Below, piece by piece: positions 1-5,893 of a stretch of DNA of 5,893 nucleotides. Under the pieces are notes generated by a model, which was not told the origin of the DNA, ran no database searches, and saw only the letters and a program-made list of their open reading frames with translations. This stretch comes from a virus (taxonomy: Duplodnaviria; Heunggongvirae; Uroviricota; Caudoviricetes). The position numbers were made by a program, and so were the translations under genes. The DNA lies in the IMG/VR virus record IMGVR_UViG_2698536372_000022. One strand, given 5' to 3'. How positions within the stretch are numbered: the stretch's first letter is position 1; each line of letters starts with the position of its first letter.

Positions 1-197
1 CCAGGTTTATCCTCGCAGACAATAAATTTATAAGCGCAGTCCTGAGCAGCCGGATAATGTTCCAGGAACTGCCAGTGAAATTTTGCTCGAGCACGGCGTT
101 CGTCGCCAGCTTCAATGGCTGTGGCTACAGCCACAGAGCCTTCTTCCCTTGTTGCCAGTTCGTCAGGAATAGCGGCGCAAATAAAGACTTTACTCAT
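1..197 (-). CDS. 5' part of a prophage gene in the ydfE position (hypothetical protein); gene runs off the left edge of the window
   Basis: ATG at 195-197 on the minus strand, with GAGG about 10 nt upstream. The frame stays open to position 1, reading MSKVFICAAIPDELATREEGSVAVATAIEAGDERRARAKFHWQFLEHYPAAQDCAYKFIVCEDKP. It lies directly downstream of ydfD in the same orientation, as ydfE does in Qin-type prophages. The identification is by position, not by sequence recall. Confidence 0.6.
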   Translation of the reverse strand, partial: MSKVFICAAIPDELATREEGSVAVATAIEAGDERRARAKFHWQFLEHYPAAQDCAYKFIVCEDKP

Positions 198-290
198 TTT
201 GTTTTAACCTCATGACAGATTTAAGGATGAACAAATCCCTGCCATTGCTGGCATATAAGAATGAAACCGGATATTTATTACGGAACTGTT

Positions 291-482
291 TTAAAGACCT
301 GCCGGGATTTCGATATTATCCTGGTGAATAACTTTATCGACCGGGTAACAGTTACCGGGAATTTTCTGTTCGGTTGCTGCAGTCATACACTCCTGCATTG
401 TCCTGTGAACACTGACTGCAATATCAACTGGCACTCCGGAAACAAGAAAAACTGTCAGAACAAGCGCAAATGCTGAATTCAT
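291..482 (-). CDS. ydfD: YdfD-family small prophage lysis protein (63 aa)
   Basis: Internal Met of the 291..536 ORF gives MNSAFALVLTVFLVSGVPVDIAVSVHRTMQECMTAATEQKIPGNCYPVDKVIHQDNIEIPAGL, which matches E. coli YdfD as I recall it. Its ATG (480-482) overlaps the dicB stop (479-481) as ATGA, suggesting translational coupling. It has an N-terminal hydrophobic segment. Confidence 0.85.
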   Translation of the reverse strand: MNSAFALVLTVFLVSGVPVDIAVSVHRTMQECMTAATEQKIPGNCYPVDKVIHQDNIEIPAGL

Positions 483-667
483 TGTGCACATCCTTTTGGC
501 ATCAGACGTAAACGAGCCAGCATTGAAACAATGCATATTTTATTTAATAGCTCCCGTTCTTGTTTTCTCTTGTTAATGGCATCTTCAGTAAATACAGGGT
601 TACTGATAGTGACACCAATTTCAAAACAACCTTCAGACGTATTAACGTTTGGTAATAACGTTTTCAT
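479..667 (-). CDS. dicB: Cell-division inhibitor DicB (62 aa; acts with MinC on FtsZ)
   Basis: Internal Met of the 479..772 ORF gives MKTLLPNVNTSEGCFEIGVTISNPVFTEDAINKRKQERELLNKICIVSMLARLRLMPKGCAQ, which is the E. coli DicB sequence as I recall it. GAGGA lies about 9 nt upstream of the ATG at 665-667 on the minus strand. The longer N-terminal extension in the ORF track has no ribosome-binding site and is not expected. Confidence 0.9.
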   Translation of the reverse strand: MKTLLPNVNTSEGCFEIGVTISNPVFTEDAINKRKQERELLNKICIVSMLARLRLMPKGCAQ

Positions 668-836
668 TATCGCGTCCTCAACAATGAATTTTGTGATGCA
701 GTGCCTGGTGCCTCCAGGTGACGTTAACCAGTTAACAATTAACGTCGGATACAGAGAATCCACCCATAACACTGTTTTTGGTTTTAACTGTTCCGCGTGC
801 GCTTAGCCGTATTCACCGCATCACAAAATTCACTTT

Positions 837-894
837 AAAAAGGGCGGCAGAGCAGTCACGGAGTAAAACTGATACCGCCAAACGTCACCAGAAA
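837..894 (-). ncRNA. dicF: DicF small regulatory RNA (53-nt mature sRNA plus U-tail of its intrinsic terminator)
   Basis: Reverse complement of 842-894 reads TTTCTGGTGACGTTTGGCGGTATCAGTTTTACTCCGTGACTGCTCTGCCGCCC, followed by TTTTT (837-841). This is the DicF sequence as I recall it, with its GC stem and U-tract terminator. It sits between the ydfB/ydfC region and dicB, as in the Qin dicB operon. Confidence 0.9.
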
Positions 895-1153
895 ATTGAT
901 AACAGAGGGCGTTGCAGCGGGGTTGTCACTTAAGCGTATGGTCAACCTGACAACCCGGTGTCCTCAACGGGGAAGGAATAACCCCGCCATACTTACCGCC
1001 GCGCCATTTTGCGGGTTGCCACAACCGGAAGCGCACGGTCGAATTAAATTTAACGACACCGTACAGTGAGACGAACTTCGCCGTGCGCTTTCGTGTTGTG
1101 TGCCTGCTTTTAACCACGTCAGGCGAGGTGGTATCCTTAAAATCACCACAGTT

Positions 1154-1729
1154 TTAAGGATTCATTAAGCAATGTCGCAACCACCAATAAATCCGCTTAA
1201 GAACATGAAAATTGATTACTGGTATAAAGCGCTTACAGTTGTTGGCGCTGCGTTGTTTGTCTTTAATGGAACGTCTTTTTTTGACAGATATCCCGTTGTT
1301 CCATTGGGTTTTTTGTCCTCCGGCATCTTTTTTATTGGTTTGGGGGAGTGGATTAATCACCCTCTCATAGTGAGATTTATTGGTCCTGGAGTTTGGACTC
1401 GTGGATATAATCGTTCTTCGTGCGCACTCGGTATCATCTTCGACATACTTGGTTGTTTCCTGATTGTTACAGGAGTCGTCAAGTTCTTCTGATGTAAAAC
1501 CGCAAATGGGGCACGTAACGGGAATTTTGAAAAGCGTTTCTCCGGGTTCCAGAACAAAATTTTCTGCGGTCTGATTTTGCTTCTCATATTTGTGCTCCGC
1601 GTCATTGTGAGAGCACATTCTTATTCTGAGTGCCTGTTTAAACTCACTGAAGCTGAGAGCTTCTTCGCCTTCGGCAAGGCCTTCGAAGTATTCTTCGTAA
1701 GCCTTTTCCATGATTGTGTTGAAATCCAT
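1154..1729 (-). CDS. YdfB-like prophage protein; open reading frame continues for 191 codons, C-terminal extent uncertain
   Basis: ATG at 1727-1729 on the minus strand lies 1 nt after the ydfA stop, with GGTGAG upstream. The N-terminus MDFNTIMEKAYEEYFEGLAEGEEALSFSEFKQAL is acidic and protein-like and includes a CPICG motif. The frame stays open to 1154, but the last ~100 residues are K/R/N/T-rich low complexity, which is what the antisense of a hydrophobic ORF looks like. The K-12 counterpart is much shorter as I recall. Confidence 0.45.
   Translation of the reverse strand: MDFNTIMEKAYEEYFEGLAEGEEALSFSEFKQALRIRMCSHNDAEHKYEKQNQTAENFVLEPGETLFKIPVTCPICGFTSEELDDSCNNQETTKYVEDDTECARRTIISTSPNSRTNKSHYERVINPLPQTNKKDAGGQKTQWNNGISVKKRRSIKDKQRSANNCKRFIPVINFHVLKRIYWWLRHCLMNP
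1172..1492 (+). CDS. Candidate small membrane protein (106 aa, about 3 hydrophobic segments), convergent with and antisense to the ydfB-like ORF
   Basis: ATG at 1172 with AAGGA 12 nt upstream. Product MSQPPINPLKNMKIDYWYKALTVVGAALFVFNG...GFLSSGIFFIGLGEW...ALGIIFDILGCFLIVTGVVKFF has three hydrophobic stretches of transmembrane length. The ORF contains no TTA, CTA or TCA codons. It is mutually exclusive with the minus-strand ORF over the same bases, so only one can be the selected frame. Confidence 0.3.
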   Translation: MSQPPINPLKNMKIDYWYKALTVVGAALFVFNGTSFFDRYPVVPLGFLSSGIFFIGLGEWINHPLIVRFIGPGVWTRGYNRSSCALGIIFDILGCFLIVTGVVKFF

Positions 1730-1730
1730 A

Positions 1731-1886
1731 TCACTCACCTGAGTTTCTTTCCAGCCAGCGACGGGCACCATTTTCGGTTTTAAACGTTTTGCTTTTGGTA
1801 TACGTCATCGCGGTGAACGTGCCGTCCTGGTTGGGGAACACGCCACATACCAGAGATTCGCTGTTGCCAAGATCGATAGTATCCAT
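1731..1886 (-). CDS. ydfA: YdfA-family small prophage protein (51 aa, DUF1391-like)
   Basis: Internal Met of the 1731..2042 ORF gives MDTIDLGNSESLVCGVFPNQDGTFTAMTYTKSKTFKTENGARRWLERNSGE. GAGGT lies 7-8 nt upstream of the ATG at 1884-1886 on the minus strand. It is the first gene downstream of the dicA-like repressor gene, the ydfA position in Qin. The N-terminal extension in the ORF track is unsupported. Confidence 0.85.
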   Translation of the reverse strand: MDTIDLGNSESLVCGVFPNQDGTFTAMTYTKSKTFKTENGARRWLERNSGE

Positions 1887-1962
1887 GCTGACCTCATTTC
1901 CCCTTAACGCCGGGGTAGCGGAACTGTTTGCTGAGAACACCGTGCGGTGTCTTGATGGAGGT

Positions 1963-1991
1963 AATTTAGTTTTCTCATTATTTTTCGTCAA
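1963..1991 (-). promoter_or_regulatory. Candidate sigma70 promoter of the leftward dicB operon (ydfA-ydfB-dicF-dicB-ydfD)
   Basis: Minus strand reads TTGACG (-35, plus-strand 1986-1991), a 17-nt spacer, then TAAATT (-10, plus-strand 1963-1968). The predicted transcription start is about 70 nt upstream of the ydfA ATG. Operator-like motifs overlap the spacer/-10 and lie just upstream of the -35. Confidence 0.5.
1964..1977. promoter_or_regulatory. Operator-like site O3 (imperfect TGAG-N4-CTAAA) overlapping the -10/spacer of the dicB-operon promoter
   Basis: Minus strand reads aTGAGAAAACTAAA. It shares the 10-nt core TGAGAAAACT with the sites at 2001-2014 and 2537-2550. Confidence 0.4.
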
Positions 1992-2000
1992 GGTTTTTTG

Positions 2001-2014
2001 ATGAGAAAACTCAA
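2001..2014. promoter_or_regulatory. Operator-like site O2 (ATGAG-AAAA-CTCAA) immediately upstream of the dicB-operon -35
   Basis: Plus strand reads aTGAGAAAACTCAA at 2001-2014. It shares a 13-nt core with the palindromic site in the dicA/dicC intergenic region. Confidence 0.45.
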
Positions 2015-2078
2015 GTGTTGGCGCAAGATAAAGCCAATACATTGAAATGTAAGGCTTTAAAATTTTGTGAAGGGATGA

Positions 2079-2486
2079 TTATTGATGCTTGTTGCGTTTG
2101 CGAGCCTCTAATAGCTCGGTGAACAGGCGATTAAAATTCTCAACGCGGGCGCGGAGTTCGCTGAGTTGTGCTTGTTGCTCTGATTTAGGAAGTGCGCGAT
2201 ACAAACGCAGCATCTCTAACTCATCTTCCGATAAGTCTAAGGCACTATCGAGTGAAACAGGGGGAGCTGGTGTTTTGTCCTCGTCGCCAAACAGTATCCA
2301 AGTTGGTGAACATTGCAATACCTCGGCGAGGCGATGCAAATTTTGCCCGCGCGGGGCTGTATGGTCACTTTCCCATAATGAAATTGATGAGCCAGATACG
2401 CCAGCAGCTTTGCTTAAACCGTTTTGACTTAAGCCTACCTGCTTACGTCTTTCTCTAATGCGTTGACCTAAAGTTTTCTCGTTCAT
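2079..2486 (-). CDS. dicA: DicA-like prophage repressor (XRE-family HTH, 135 aa; no S24 peptidase domain)
   Basis: From the second Met the product is MNEKTLGQRIRERRKQVGLSQNGLSKAAGVSGSSISLWESDHTAPRGQNLHRLAEVLQCSPTWILFGDEDK... It aligns along its full length with E. coli DicA as I recall it (METKNLTIGERIRYRRKNL...VLQCSPTWILFGDEDK) and has the same length. There is no Shine-Dalgarno before the ATG at 2484-2486, so it is leaderless-like, as is common for cI-type genes. It is divergent from the cro-like gene. Confidence 0.9.
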   Translation of the reverse strand: MNEKTLGQRIRERRKQVGLSQNGLSKAAGVSGSSISLWESDHTAPRGQNLHRLAEVLQCSPTWILFGDEDKTPAPPVSLDSALDLSEDELEMLRLYRALPKSEQQAQLSELRARVENFNRLFTELLEARKRNKHQ

Positions 2487-2507
2487 ATTTAGATATCTTA
2501 ATAACCC

Positions 2508-2537
2508 TTGACTTGAGATTCCTTGAGTGATTAGCAT
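2508..2537 (+). promoter_or_regulatory. Candidate rightward early promoter for the dicC-like operon
   Basis: TTGACT (2508-2513), an 18-nt spacer, then TAGCAT (2532-2537). The palindromic operator at 2537-2550 sits at the predicted transcription start. TTGAG half-sites recur at 2513, 2523 and 2537 with 10-bp spacing. Confidence 0.4.
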
Positions 2538-2550
2538 TGAGAAAACTCAA
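2537..2550. promoter_or_regulatory. Operator-like palindrome O1 (TTGAG-AAAA-CTCAA) in the dicA/dicC divergent intergenic region
   Basis: Perfect 5-bp inverted half-sites around an A4 centre, located between the divergent repressor and cro-like genes. The same core is found at the dicB-operon promoter. Confidence 0.5.
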
Positions 2551-2563
2551 TATTGGAGGTGCG

Positions 2564-2791
2564 ATGTTTAAATCAGACGTAATTAATTTTTACGGTACGA
2601 AAGCCAAAGTAGCGAAAGCTGCTGGCGTTGACCCATCTGCTGTTTCTCAATGGCAAGAGCTGGTTCCTGAAGGTCGCGCGATGCGTCTACAGGAGGCATC
2701 TGGCGGCGAGCTTCTGTATGATCCCAAGGTTTATGACGAATATCGTAAGACGAAGCGGGCGGGGCGGTTGAACAATGAAAATCACTCCTGA
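2564..2791 (+). CDS. dicC: DicC/Cro-like transcriptional regulator (75 aa, YdaS/DicC family HTH)
   Basis: ATG at 2564 with GGAGG 4 nt upstream. Product MFKSDVINFYGTKAKVAKAAGVDPSAVSQWQELVPEGRAMRLQEASGGELLYDPKVYDEYRKTKRAGRLNNENHS. The C-terminal half matches E. coli DicC as I recall it. It is divergent from the repressor gene. The TTG start at 2537 in the ORF track is less likely. Confidence 0.85.
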   Translation: MFKSDVINFYGTKAKVAKAAGVDPSAVSQWQELVPEGRAMRLQEASGGELLYDPKVYDEYRKTKRAGRLNNENHS

Positions 2792-3296
2792 ACAGGCTCG
2801 TGAGGCTCTGGATGCCTGGATATGTCGACCAGGAATGACACAGGAGCAGGCGACGATATTAATCACTGAAGCATTCTGGGCTTTGAAAGAGCGCCCGAAC
2901 ATCGATGTTCAGCGTGTCACAGATGAAGGTGGCGCGGTTGATCAGCGAGCACTTGGCGTTAATCGAGTGAAGATATTCGAACGCTGGAAGGCTATCGACA
3001 CCAGGGATAAGCGTGAAAAGTTCACGGCGCTAGTGCCTGCAATTATGGAGGCTATTCGGATTAATGATTTCAGGTTGTATCGTGAAATTAGTGACGGAAA
3101 AAGCATCACGTACATGATCGCCGGGTTAAACAAAGAATATGGCGATGTGGTGGAGTCCGGACTGCTTTTTGCTGATCCTGCCGTAGTGGATCGTGAAACT
3201 GACGAACTTATAGAAAAAGCAATTGCTTTCAAACTTGCGTATCGACAGCAATACCAACAAAAAGCTGGATGGAATTATGAGCCTTCTTTTTGCTGA
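2775..3296 (+). CDS. ydaT: YdaT-family protein (PF06254-like; proposed CII-equivalent regulator, historically annotated as toxin YdaT)
   Basis: The N-terminus MKITPEQAREALDAW and the block KIFERWKAIDTRDKREKFTALVPAIMEAI follow the pattern of Rac YdaT as I recall it (MKI...RW...REK...L.PAI). It overlaps the dicC-like stop by 17 nt and lies in the cII position of the early-right operon. Confidence 0.8.
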   Translation: MKITPEQAREALDAWICRPGMTQEQATILITEAFWALKERPNIDVQRVTDEGGAVDQRALGVNRVKIFERWKAIDTRDKREKFTALVPAIMEAIRINDFRLYREISDGKSITYMIAGLNKEYGDVVESGLLFADPAVVDRETDELIEKAIAFKLAYRQQYQQKAGWNYEPSFC

Positions 3297-4242
3297 ACGC
3301 CCACTGGTTATAAACACACAGCTTGCGATGAAGATTGGCTTAAATGAAGCCATTGTGTTGCAGCAGTTGCATTACTGGTTGAGAGATACCAATTCCGGCA
3401 TGGAATGTGATGGTGTTCGCTGGATTTACAACACAACGGAACAATGGCTGGAACAGTTCCCATTCTGGTCAGAGTCAACGTTAAAGCGCGCGTTTGCAAG
3501 TCTGAAAACGCTGGGGCTTTTGCGTTGTGAAAAGCTCAATAAATCAAAGCGCGATATGACCAATTTCTACACGATCAACTACGGGAGCGAGCTTTTAGAT
3601 GGTGGCAAATTGAGCGAATCCATCGGTTTAAAATGCGCCGCTCCATCAGGTCAAAATGACACGATGGAAGAGGTCAAAATGAAACGCTCCATTGGTTCAA
3701 AACGACCCAATGTCATCGGGTCAAAATGGCCTGATGATCTTACAGAGAATACAACAGAGATTACTACAGAGAATAAAAACACTTTTCGTCCGGAAGCTTC
3801 GCAACCGGACCAGCAGACCGCTGAACAGGATTTTTTAACCCGGAACCCCGACGCGGTTGTGTTTAGTGCGAAAAAACGCCAGTGGGGTAGCAGGGAGGAT
3901 TTGGCGTGTGCGCAGTGGATTTGGGGGCGGATCGTGAACCTTTACGAACAGGCTGCCAGCGACGATGGAGAGATCATGCGACCAAAAGAGCCTAACTGGA
4001 CAGCCTGGGCCAATGACGTGCGCACAATGCGGATGCTGGATGGCAGAAGCCACAGACAAATTTGCGAAATGTTTGGTCGGGTACAGCGAGATCAATTCTG
4101 GGTAAAAAACATCATGAGCCCGTCAAAACTCCGCGAAAAATGGGACGAACTGGTCATCCGCCTGGGACGTTCACCTGTACAGCGTTGTGTGAATCATATT
4201 TCTGAACCGGATACAGAAATTCCGCCTGGTTTCAGGGGATAA
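3277..4242 (+). CDS. Phage replication initiation protein (O-like replisome organizer with C-terminal DnaT-like domain)
   Basis: From the ATG at 3277 the N-terminal region (MSLLFAERPLVINTQLAMKIGLNEAIVLQQLHYWL...) resembles the phage replisome-organizer N-domain. The C-terminal region (NWTAWANDVRTMRMLDGRSHRQICEMFGRVQRDQFWVKNIMSPSKLREKWDE) resembles the DnaT C-terminal domain. The central linker is encoded by iteron repeats. The gene overlaps the ydaT-like stop by 20 nt. The TTG at 3223 is a less likely start. Confidence 0.85.
   Translation: MSLLFAERPLVINTQLAMKIGLNEAIVLQQLHYWLRDTNSGMECDGVRWIYNTTEQWLEQFPFWSESTLKRAFASLKTLGLLRCEKLNKSKRDMTNFYTINYGSELLDGGKLSESIGLKCAAPSGQNDTMEEVKMKRSIGSKRPNVIGSKWPDDLTENTTEITTENKNTFRPEASQPDQQTAEQDFLTRNPDAVVFSAKKRQWGSREDLACAQWIWGRIVNLYEQAASDDGEIMRPKEPNWTAWANDVRTMRMLDGRSHRQICEMFGRVQRDQFWVKNIMSPSKLREKWDELVIRLGRSPVQRCVNHISEPDTEIPPGFRG
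3625..3728. repeat. Iteron array (5 copies of GGTCAAAATG-like repeat, about 23-24 bp period) inside the O-like gene; putative prophage replication origin
   Basis: GGTTTAAAATG at 3625, GGTCAAAATG at 3649, GGTCAAAATG at 3672, GGTTCAAAACG at 3694 and GGTCAAAATG at 3719. The protein linker they encode is correspondingly repetitive (SIGLK / IGSKRP / IGSKWP). Confidence 0.6.
3739..3790. repeat. AT-rich region with three ACAGAGA(A/T)TA direct repeats immediately downstream of the iterons (candidate DNA-unwinding element of the origin)
   Basis: Sequence cttACAGAGAATAcaACAGAGATTActACAGAGAATAaaaacac. It sits in the same position relative to the iterons as the AT-rich segment of lambda ori within gene O. 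Confidence 0.45.
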
Positions 4243-4282
4243 GTGTTGATTTTAGGGTATAAAGTAATGTTCAGGAGGACTT

Positions 4283-4702
4283 GTGGCAAAAGTTTTTACA
4301 CAAGAAGAGCGGGAAAAAATTAAAGGGCAGGTGGTGGAACTCGTACGCCAGAGTGGGCGCGAGACGTTACGACAACTGGAAGCTAAAACTGGGGCAACAA
4401 GATATCTGATGAGCGTTCTGGCCAGAGAGCTGGTTGCCAGTGGCGATGTATACAGCTCTGGTTACGGGTTATTCCCGTCTGAACAGGCGCGTAAGGACTG
4501 GCAAAACGCCCGCAAAAAACTCTCGAGGGCAAAGGTGAAGAAACCTGCTGTGGTTGATCCGGACCTTATCTGGTCATTACCTGACGGAGAAATACGTCGC
4601 TACGACAGTCGTCTAAACATAATCTGTCGCGAGTGCCGGAAGGCAAGGAGAAGCAGGCTATTGTTAACACCAAGCTGTAATGTCCCCTTTGAACCATTCT
4701 AA
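4283..4702 (+). CDS. Hypothetical basic protein (139 aa), function unknown; possibly a remnant of a replication/helicase-loader module gene
   Basis: GTG start at 4283 with AGGAGG 5 nt upstream. Product MAKVFTQEEREKIKGQVVELVRQSGRETLRQLEAKTGATRYLMSVLARELVASGDV... is lysine/arginine-rich with a possible HTH-like segment and a CRECR motif. A GC hairpin plus T-tract follows the stop. I recognise no family for it. Confidence 0.6.
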   Translation: MAKVFTQEEREKIKGQVVELVRQSGRETLRQLEAKTGATRYLMSVLARELVASGDVYSSGYGLFPSEQARKDWQNARKKLSRAKVKKPAVVDPDLIWSLPDGEIRRYDSRLNIICRECRKARRSRLLLTPSCNVPFEPF

Positions 4703-4707
4703 AATGT

Positions 4708-4734
4708 CCCCAGACAATTCTCTGGGGGATTTTT
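4708..4734 (+). terminator. Intrinsic-terminator-like hairpin (7-bp GC stem CCCCAGA/TCTGGGG, 6-nt loop, T5 tract) between the hypothetical gene and the transposase start
   Basis: CCCCAGA (4708-4714), loop caattc, TCTGGGG (4721-4727), then gaTTTTT (4728-4734). It ends 1 nt before the transposase ATG at 4736. It could equally be a structure at the IS end that blocks read-through. Confidence 0.35.
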
Positions 4735-4735
4735 C

Positions 4736-5830
4736 ATGATCAAAGAGACTGTTACGATGAGTCATAAGGAACTCCACCGACTTCAGATTATTCAGGAGTC
4801 AATTAATCGACATATTACTCAGGAACAAGCTGCGGCACGCATTGGCATTTCTATTCGGCAGGTTAAACGTCTGGTGCAACGGTATAGAAATGAAGGGCCT
4901 TCTGGTCTGGTTTCCCACCGACGTGGAAAGCGTCCTAATAATTCCTTTTCTACTGAATTCAGAGCAACAGTAATTTCACTCCTCAAAGGCCGTTACGCTG
5001 ATTTTGGACCTACGTTTGCGTGCGAAAAATTGCGCGAGATACACGGTTTATCTTTATCCGTTGAAACTCTCAGAAAGTGGATGATAGAAGAGGGGTTATG
5101 GCGTGAACGCCGTCGTAAAATTGCCCGTATATATCAACGCCGCATGCGACGACCATCTTACGGTGAACTGATCCAGATTGATGGCTCACCTCATGACTGG
5201 TTTGAAAATCGAGGCCCCAGATGTACACTGATCGTTTTCATTGATGATGCCACCAGTGCGTTGATGGCGTTGCGTTTTGTGCCTGCTGAAACAACCCGGG
5301 CTTACATGGAAACCCTCCGGGGTTACCTTAATGATCATGGCGTACCGCTCGCTCTCTACTCTGATAGACACAGTATATTCAGGGTAAATAACCCAGAGCG
5401 GGAAGGTGAGCTGACCCAGTTCACTCGTGCGATAAAGACACTGGGCATCGAGCCAATCCATGCCAACAGCCCGCAGGCAAAAGGGCGGGTAGAGCGCGCC
5501 AATCAGACACTACAGGACAGGCTGGTCAAAGAAATGCGGCTTCAGAATATCAGTGATATTGAAACAGCAAATGCATGGTTGCCGACCTTTATTGAAGCCT
5601 ATAACAACCGGTTCGCTACGTCGCCTCGTACTACTGATAATGCTCATCTTGATGTGCACCATTCTGAAGAGGAACTGGGTTATATCTTCAGCCTACAGGC
5701 GAAGCGCGTTCTGTCTAAAAATCTCACTTTCCAGTACAAAAGCAGTGCGTTTCAGGTACGCAGTGAGGGCCGGGGATATCGACTTAGGCATTCGGTTGTT
5801 ACTGTATGTGAGAACTTTGAGGTAGCCTGA
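4736..5830 (+). CDS. DDE transposase of the rve (retroviral-integrase-like) superfamily with N-terminal HTH; IS481/ISNCY/IS21-IstA-like
   Basis: The N-terminal HTH region reads AARIGISIRQVKRLVQRY. The catalytic core has the DDE arrangement: D in QIDGSPHDW, D in LYSDRHSIF, and E in the KGRVERANQ signature typical of rve transposases. Alternative start at ATG 4757 (MSHKEL...). The exact IS family is not resolved from memory. Confidence 0.85.
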   Translation: MIKETVTMSHKELHRLQIIQESINRHITQEQAAARIGISIRQVKRLVQRYRNEGPSGLVSHRRGKRPNNSFSTEFRATVISLLKGRYADFGPTFACEKLREIHGLSLSVETLRKWMIEEGLWRERRRKIARIYQRRMRRPSYGELIQIDGSPHDWFENRGPRCTLIVFIDDATSALMALRFVPAETTRAYMETLRGYLNDHGVPLALYSDRHSIFRVNNPEREGELTQFTRAIKTLGIEPIHANSPQAKGRVERANQTLQDRLVKEMRLQNISDIETANAWLPTFIEAYNNRFATSPRTTDNAHLDVHHSEEELGYIFSLQAKRVLSKNLTFQYKSSAFQVRSEGRGYRLRHSVVTVCENFEVA

Positions 5831-5881
5831 GTTTAACGGACACTCCTTCCTGAAATAGAATGGCATCAGAAGGAGCTAATA

Positions 5882-5893
5882 ATGAGCAGAAAA
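5882..5893 (+). CDS. Start of a downstream gene (first 4 codons, MSRK); possibly a second IS gene or passenger
   Basis: ATG at 5882 is preceded by AGGAG (5871-5875) at 6-nt spacing, 51 nt after the transposase stop. Only 12 nt are in the window. Confidence 0.3.

Follow-up and report, generated by a model that had tools for sequence, protein, structure and literature searches.

The ren gene of phage lambda reportedly enables the phage to evade the exclusion that its own Rex system exerts, a property that is said to have been described by Toothman and Herskowitz in 1980. It is a non-essential gene (PMC10695390), and an early one that is transcribed from pR together with O and P (PMC3640518); a preprint describes the Ren protein as "likely involved in DNA replication" and reports contacts with the Rex proteins and with O in two-hybrid assays (bioRxiv 10.1101/2021.04.19.439022). 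Lambda Ren (NP_040633, 96 aa) is the founding member of PHROG 142, and its gene lies after the replication genes in the order O-P-ren-ninB. The same slot of the early rightward operon is occupied in phage HannyBb and in E. coli ZYS9073, where an O-like gene is followed by a gene of the Pfam family DUF977 (PF06163), whose members are known as prophage proteins of E. coli and Salmonella and carry the labels “LygF” or “Ren-like exclusion protein” in phage records. The DUF977 family is small: of 1.84 billion cluster representatives only 85 match at E <= 1e-3, many of these being fragments, and its intact members measure 131-141 aa. Our literature search found no experimental test of any DUF977 member; the term “DUF977” turned up in a single paper on an unrelated subject, and “LygF” as a locus label only.

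Another protein encoded at this place is YdaW (b1361) of the Rac prophage of E. coli K-12, which follows ydaU and ydaV and also starts with a winged helix. Unlike the protein described below, YdaW belongs to DUF1627 (PF07789) and has two wHTH-like modules, and BLASTP gives no alignment between the two, so that an identity with YdaW was rejected. The published result that ydaW blocks the RcaT toxin of retron-Sen2 is therefore not transferable to the protein of this study.

Here we analyzed a stretch of phage DNA of 5,893 nucleotides, termed the window, and in particular one ORF of 139 codons that lies in the ren-like slot behind an O-like initiator gene. In our judgment the ORF is likely a C-terminally truncated, chimeric DUF977/Ren-like gene, carried by E. 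coli strains of the O26:H11 type within a defective lambdoid prophage of Qin/Rac type. It is a direct member of the DUF977 prophage proteins with the same position after the initiator gene, and differs from the intact members in ending with 19 foreign residues instead of the native C-terminus.

Prophage context of the ORF

Over positions 1-5823 the window matches E. coli O26:H11 str. 11368 and many related Shiga-toxin-producing strains at 100% identity, and among 5,426 complete E. coli genomes about 106 have the same arrangement. It covers the genes for immunity and replication of a defective lambdoid prophage of Qin/Rac type, and its features are summarized in Table 1. The gene order in the left part runs from the 5′ end of an exonuclease gene through ydfD, dicB and DicF to ydfA, and the occurrence of DicF downstream of dicB/ydfD marks this part as a Qin-type dic region. 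Unlike lambda, the prophage has no rexAB within the part covered by the window. A long ORF of 205 aa on the minus strand (1154-1771) overlaps a second one, of 106 aa, on the plus strand (1172-1492). The former is a hypothetical protein in the annotation of phage HannyBb, the latter is very hydrophobic, and the O26 annotation over this stretch is mostly blank except for ydfA/ydfB fragments.

Table 1. Features of the window, in the order of their position
Feature	Position	Strand	Basis or remark
DicF small RNA	842-893	-	Rfam RF00039, 76.7 bits, full length
cI-like HTH repressor	2079-2537	-	then a P22-Cro-like gene and a cII-like/YdaT-family gene
Lambda-O-like replication initiator (upstream neighbor of the ORF)	3223-4242	+	PHROG 391 “replication initiation O-like”, E 5.5e-93
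Shine-Dalgarno AGGAGG	4273-4278	+	4 nt before GTG; read from sequence
ORF, 139 aa, GTG start	4283-4702	+	chimera of native and foreign codons; RefSeq “DUF977 family protein” WP_001151195.1
Native DUF977/Ren-like coding part, codons 1-120	4283-4642	+	about 94% DNA identity to the intact HannyBb gene up to 4642, then no similarity
Winged helix-turn-helix, residues 7-65	4301-4477	+	AlphaFold2 pLDDT about 90: H7-24, H29-36, H40-53, beta hairpin
Basic helix, residues 67-83, then K/R-rich low-confidence linker	4481-4567	+	AlphaFold2 and composition
Retained first half of the conserved block (Y107, N112, C115, E117, C118, R119)	4601-4642	+	invariant columns of alignment A5; aligns to lambda Ren N73..ECR
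Deletion joint, 10-nt microhomology GTGCCGGAAG	4633-4642	.	single copy in the window
hok/sok leader 3′ remnant including the hok RBS AAGGAG, read as codons 121-127	4643-4661	+	Rfam sok/CssrC RF01794 on homologous stretches
ISEsa1-like element (IS1202 group)	4662-5823	+	left end about 4662 (+/-2); Pfam HTH and rve domains; transposase ORF from 4736
IS600 left end interrupting the ISEsa1 transposase gene	5824-5893	+	IS3-like IS600 match; O26 genomes match to 5823 only

The initiator gene contains, at 3607-3778, five imperfect direct repeats spaced by 23-24 nt with the core GGTCAAAATG, followed by three 12-nt repeats TACAGAGAATA. This iteron array resembles the iterons of lambda ori within gene O, and is probably the replication origin of this prophage. 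At the other end of the window, the junction of ISEsa1 and IS600 (5823/5824) is contiguous in no complete E. coli genome of the collection, where the sequence matches in two pieces, and the strain of the window therefore has an extra IS600 event or a rearrangement.

Kinship of the ORF with DUF977 and lambda Ren

The start and stop of the ORF agree with those set by RefSeq/PGAP (L004:5041-5460, WP_001151195.1). Its product is basic (pI 9.96; 28 K+R versus 17 D+E) with nine K+R in residues 70-95, and carries a CRECR motif at residues 115-119. A sequence-only reading of the same DNA had pointed to a good ribosome-binding site, the GTG start, a charged N-terminus, a K/R-rich center and the CRECR motif near the C-terminus, all of which hold on the sequence. 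It had found no family to which the protein could be assigned, and here it has to be corrected, as the protein is a member of Pfam DUF977 and PHROG 142, a catalogued DUF977/Ren-like prophage protein that is already annotated in RefSeq. Its remark that the place behind the initiator often carries accessory or anti-host genes was borne out by the gene order (cro-like, cII-like, O-like, then the ORF), since this is the position of lambda ren, a slot for an accessory or anti-exclusion gene in lambdoid phages.

The ORF reaches 79.1 bits with the Pfam DUF977 model (E 4.1e-22) against a gathering score of 22.1, and matches only profile positions 1-115 of 134, where the intact HannyBb protein matches 1-133; by this comparison it is a DUF977 member by descent that has been truncated. 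NCBIfam holds no model for the protein. It has 852 homologues, and the named matches among the close ones are Escherichia or Salmonella in all cases. Residues 1-120 are 93-97% identical to those of the intact close relatives, which are 140-141 aa long, and the pN/pS of codons 1-120 against intact relatives is 0.04-0.08. Taken together, the Pfam score, the homologues and the low pN/pS identify the ORF as a real gene, far above chance. The low pN/pS points to past purifying selection, and would mostly reflect the history before the deletion described below, saying little about the time since.

The relation to lambda Ren is a remote one. With the PHROG 142 profile “Ren-like exclusion protein” the ORF protein gives E 4e-35 and lambda Ren itself E 1.6e-41. 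Lambda Ren did not reach a match with Pfam DUF977, and pairwise BLASTP of the ORF protein against lambda Ren is insignificant (E 0.054). Comparison by hhalign of a DUF977 profile (12-sequence alignment A5) with a Ren profile (11-sequence alignment A6) gave a probability of 96.2% and E 2.2e-9 over 76 columns, spanning the HTH region and the C-terminal ECR..M.RVLA.Y motif. These profile matches identify the DUF977 proteins as remote homologues of lambda Ren, and we hold it as almost certain from them that the ORF belongs to the DUF977/Ren-like family.

An intact 140-aa member (P0002) was modeled with AlphaFold2 from an alignment of 27 rows, in which DUF977 proteins of E. coli and Salmonella and Ren proteins were represented. 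In the model the winged helix-turn-helix (wHTH) and the basic helix are followed by a low-confidence linker (residues 84-115) and a C-terminal helix of moderate confidence (residues 116-139, pLDDT 66-77). The segment RETLRQLEAKTGATRYLMSVLARELVASG, which had been singled out earlier as a possible winged helix, falls inside the confidently predicted wHTH, and the PDB searches agree. Foldseek against the PDB matched the N-terminal domain only, with the AraR/GntR DNA-binding domain, MarR, MntR and Zalpha as targets (E >= 0.02, probabilities about 1, TM-scores up to 0.66-0.76 on small targets), and Foldseek against the BFVD viral models gave generic wHTH matches only. A profile search of PDB sequences returned MntR (3e-4), AraR (7e-4) and PKZ Zalpha (1e-3). 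The likeness to GntR/AraR, MarR, MntR/DtxR and Zalpha domains concerns residues 7-65 at the level of the fold, with 12-22% identity, whereas the dimerisation and effector domains of these proteins are absent from the ORF.

The best-conserved part of the family, as seen in alignment A5, is a C-terminal block and not the wHTH. Its conserved columns are Y107, N112, C115, E117, C118, R119, S121, M124, R126, L128 and F130, and the family signature reads N-x-I-C-x-E-C-R-x-S-x-x-M-x-R-V-L-A-F-Y, of which CRECR is the start. Lambda Ren has N-L-I-F-K-E-C-R-Q-S-A-A-M-K-R-V-L-A-V-Y, thus both groups hold a C-terminal N-x-I/L-x-x-E-C-R-x-S-x-x-M-x-R-V-L-A-x-Y helix in addition to the N-terminal wHTH and the same slot after the replication genes. 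The DUF977 proteins exceed lambda Ren by about 40 aa, have an additional helix at the N-terminus as well as the K/R-rich linker, and differ further in a second Cys that makes up a CxxC. A zinc finger at CRECR was considered and rejected, as the block offers one CxxC only. Because no second Cys/His pair is conserved and lambda Ren is without the first Cys, a monomeric zinc site in this block is unlikely.

An intact DUF977 allele, in a cluster of 1,191 sequences, is also found in Salmonella enterica contigs (L010-L012, gene 5001-5396). It is the only such gene left at the border between chromosomal genes and a heavily degraded prophage island (integrase, PagK, RecT fragment), which hints that a DUF977 gene may persist after the rest of the phage decays.

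The deletion joint and the foreign 3′ end

Only two of the 120 residues encoded by the native part of the ORF differ in the comparison with the intact gene. Behind codon 120 the reading frame runs through 19 nt of a hok leader and 41 nt of an IS end including the TAA, with the left end of ISEsa1 supplying the last 12-13 codons and the stop (4700-4702). The protein consequently ends in A-R-R-S-R-L-L-L-T-P-S-C-N-V-P-F-E-P-F, where intact relatives continue with S-E-V-M-Q-R-V-L-T/A-F-Y-Q-G-N... to 140-141 aa, and among the 852 + 85 homologues no intact family member was seen that naturally ends in ...ARRSRLLLTPSCNVPFEPF. Judging from these alignments, there can be little doubt that the ORF is truncated, its last 19 residues being foreign and the native last 20 codons lost.

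The course of the event can be read from the related prophage of E. coli ZYS9073 (L005), which carries GTGCCGGAAG at 513 in its DUF977 gene and GTGCCGAAAG at 2501 in a hok/sok leader, 1,988 bp apart. The two breakpoint repeats form a 9/10 microhomology, and between them lie a SAM-methyltransferase pseudogene, another gene and a hok/sok-type locus. The comparison indicates that a 1,988-bp deletion between these 10-nt near-repeats joined codon 120 to the final 29 nt of the hok leader, which abuts ISEsa1, and by the same evidence the deletion also took the methyltransferase gene, the further gene and most of the hok/sok locus. HannyBb, a functional phage, has the intact arrangement, therefore the state in the window is the derived one. 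In HannyBb, a “hypothetical protein” two genes downstream of DUF977 (L001:4726-5409) strongly matches the family of QueH, epoxyqueuosine reductase (PF02677, E 1.9e-65); this QueH-family gene adjoins a small “DNA methyltransferase” ORF, and the corresponding region is lost from the window.

The border between leader and IS was placed with the help of Rfam RF01794, which matches L005:2359-2530 (104 bits) and HannyBb L001:5856-6030 (115 bits). The HannyBb leader ends ...AAGGAGAAGCAGGCTATGAAG into the hok start codon and continues GCAGGCTATGAAG; L005 and the window read ...GCAGGCTAT and then TGTTAACACC at the IS boundary. As the leader departs from HannyBb between GCAGGCTAT and TGTTAACACC, ISEsa1 starts at about 4662. 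Plasmid copies of ISEsa1 are 99.6% identical over window 4634-5823; a left end at about 4634, where these copies begin to match, was rejected, as Rfam shows 4633-4661 to be hok/sok leader.

A direct cut by the IS, or an IS-mediated adjacent deletion, was likewise rejected, for the joint sits 20-29 nt outside the ISEsa1 end, in the hok/sok leader remnant; a microhomology-mediated deletion appears to fit better than either. The earlier suspicion that the 3′ end of the ORF is affected by the neighboring IS region was right to this extent, whereas the IS itself did not make the cut, the deletion ending just outside it. The sequence-only reading had also named an alternative, that the ORF could be the N-terminal fragment of a known helicase loader or NinB-type protein truncated by the IS. 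It was correct in spirit as to the truncation, with the native C-terminus of about 20 aa gone, and wrong as to the direct IS cut and the family. No match of the ORF was found in Pfam, PHROGs or NCBIfam (E <= 0.1-1) to helicase-loader families (lambda P, DnaC/IstB-like, DnaD-like) or to an AAA+/P-type domain, nor any to PF05772 or the NinB PHROG for a NinB/Orf recombination mediator.

The neighborhood of ISEsa1 deserves a separate description. All copies examined, from an E. coli Qin-like prophage, a Klebsiella IncFIB/HI1B plasmid and an Enterobacter IncF plasmid, lie directly after a sok/hok-type leader (RF01794), in place of the hok start codon (window 4633-4735; L005:2359-2604; L008:1054-1303; L007:1154-1303). 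The leaders upstream of the copies are only about 70% alike, hence the insertions look independent. This suggests either a target preference of ISEsa1 (IS1202 group) for hok loci or a co-mobilisation of the leader. A plasmid-encoded 21-aa “DUF5431 family protein” across the leader/ISEsa1 junction is probably an annotation artefact. The annotated “ydfW” (L005:3795-3944, and at the same place in L003, L004 and L006) corresponds to the C-terminal 49 codons of the ISEsa1 transposase ORF, which when intact encodes 446 aa (L005:2604-3944), and PGAP marks the transposase as “missing C-terminus” in the same records.

Possible roles of intact and truncated members

By analogy with lambda Ren, an intact DUF977 protein would be an accessory factor of the early phase, dispensable for the phage and acting at its replication complex. 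The wHTH and the basic region would anchor the protein to nucleic acid, to the O-type initiator or to this complex, and the conserved helix at the C-terminus would bind a partner that would otherwise trigger or transmit Rex-type abortive exclusion, with the outcome that the phage could escape this exclusion. We offer this two-part mechanism of docking and C-terminal helix for the intact proteins as a tentative proposal, which is rather doubtful as it stands.

The copy in the window has lost with the deletion S121, M124, R126, L128 and F130, all invariant or nearly so, and with them half of the signature helix. AlphaFold2 of the window protein leaves the wHTH unchanged (pLDDT 87-90) and predicts a C-terminal helix only at 122-128, versus 122-139 in the intact model, with pLDDT over the last 20 residues falling to 55/37. 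Since half of the signature helix is gone, this copy is probably inactive, or at most may keep the activity of the wHTH. The truncated allele is identical in about 106 of 5,426 complete E. coli genomes, non-O26 backgrounds included, which fits clonal inheritance; a residual or altered function would also be compatible with it.

One may ask whether the protein could instead be a functional small transcription factor, the wHTH of which binds specific operators and controls genes of the prophage or the host, with the change at the C-terminus tolerated since the DNA-binding domain is intact. The wHTH is predicted with confidence, the nearest structures are the DNA-binding domains of repressors (AraR, MarR, MntR), relatives are listed in some sources as “DNA-binding protein” or “MarR family transcriptional regulator”, and the ORF keeps a strong RBS and its place in the early operon. 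However, conservation is highest in the lost C-terminal block and not in the recognition helix, the ORF protein has no predicted domain for dimerisation or effector binding, on which MarR/GntR-type regulators depend, and no regulatory role is known for lambda Ren, which leaves the regulator improbable.

A wider reading of the Ren-like function, to which we give a similarly small chance, draws on the remote Ren homology and the published two-hybrid contacts. DUF977 and Ren would then be widespread small anti-abortive-infection factors in which the wHTH docks and the C-terminal helix neutralises Rex-like systems, the conserved CxxC of DUF977 might link two molecules into a dimer through zinc, and the O26-type truncated allele would be a natural separation-of-function variant, capable of docking without neutralisation. 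The PADLOC defence models gave no match for the ORF, the intact homologue or lambda Ren.

Still less probable is a strict replication accessory, that is a helicase loader, or an adaptor for one, standing in for a missing P/DnaC-type gene beside the O-like initiator. It is true that the initiator is followed by the ORF without a P/DnaC-like gene in between, where K-12 Rac has ydaV, and the replication role ascribed to Ren and its interactions with Rex and O would suit a protein of this kind. Yet the ORF shows no DnaC, P, DnaD or NinB similarity, the C-terminal half of the initiator itself has DnaD-like/replisome-organiser similarity, Ren is dispensable for lambda growth, and the functional phage HannyBb shares the gene order, so that no loader is “missing”. 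A neo-functionalised fusion, whose chimeric tail gives a new function selected in the O26 lineage, could call on the identical allele in genomes that are in part non-O26, but it is scarcely credible for a tail without homologue that derives from the end of an IS and a ribosome-binding region of hok and is predicted to be disordered (pLDDT 37), in a prophage that shows nested IS insertions and decay around the ORF.

We thus return to a truncated DUF977/Ren-like gene as the preferred reading. As an annotated member of a known family and a damaged copy, the ORF in itself has little discovery value. It does call for an annotation correction, in that WP_001151195.1, a deletion chimera, is now labeled as an intact “DUF977 family protein”. 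The wider meaning lies with the family, where DUF977 and lambda Ren as one family with a common C-terminal signature helix provide a larger set of natural variants for the ren/Rex problem, which is about 45 years old.
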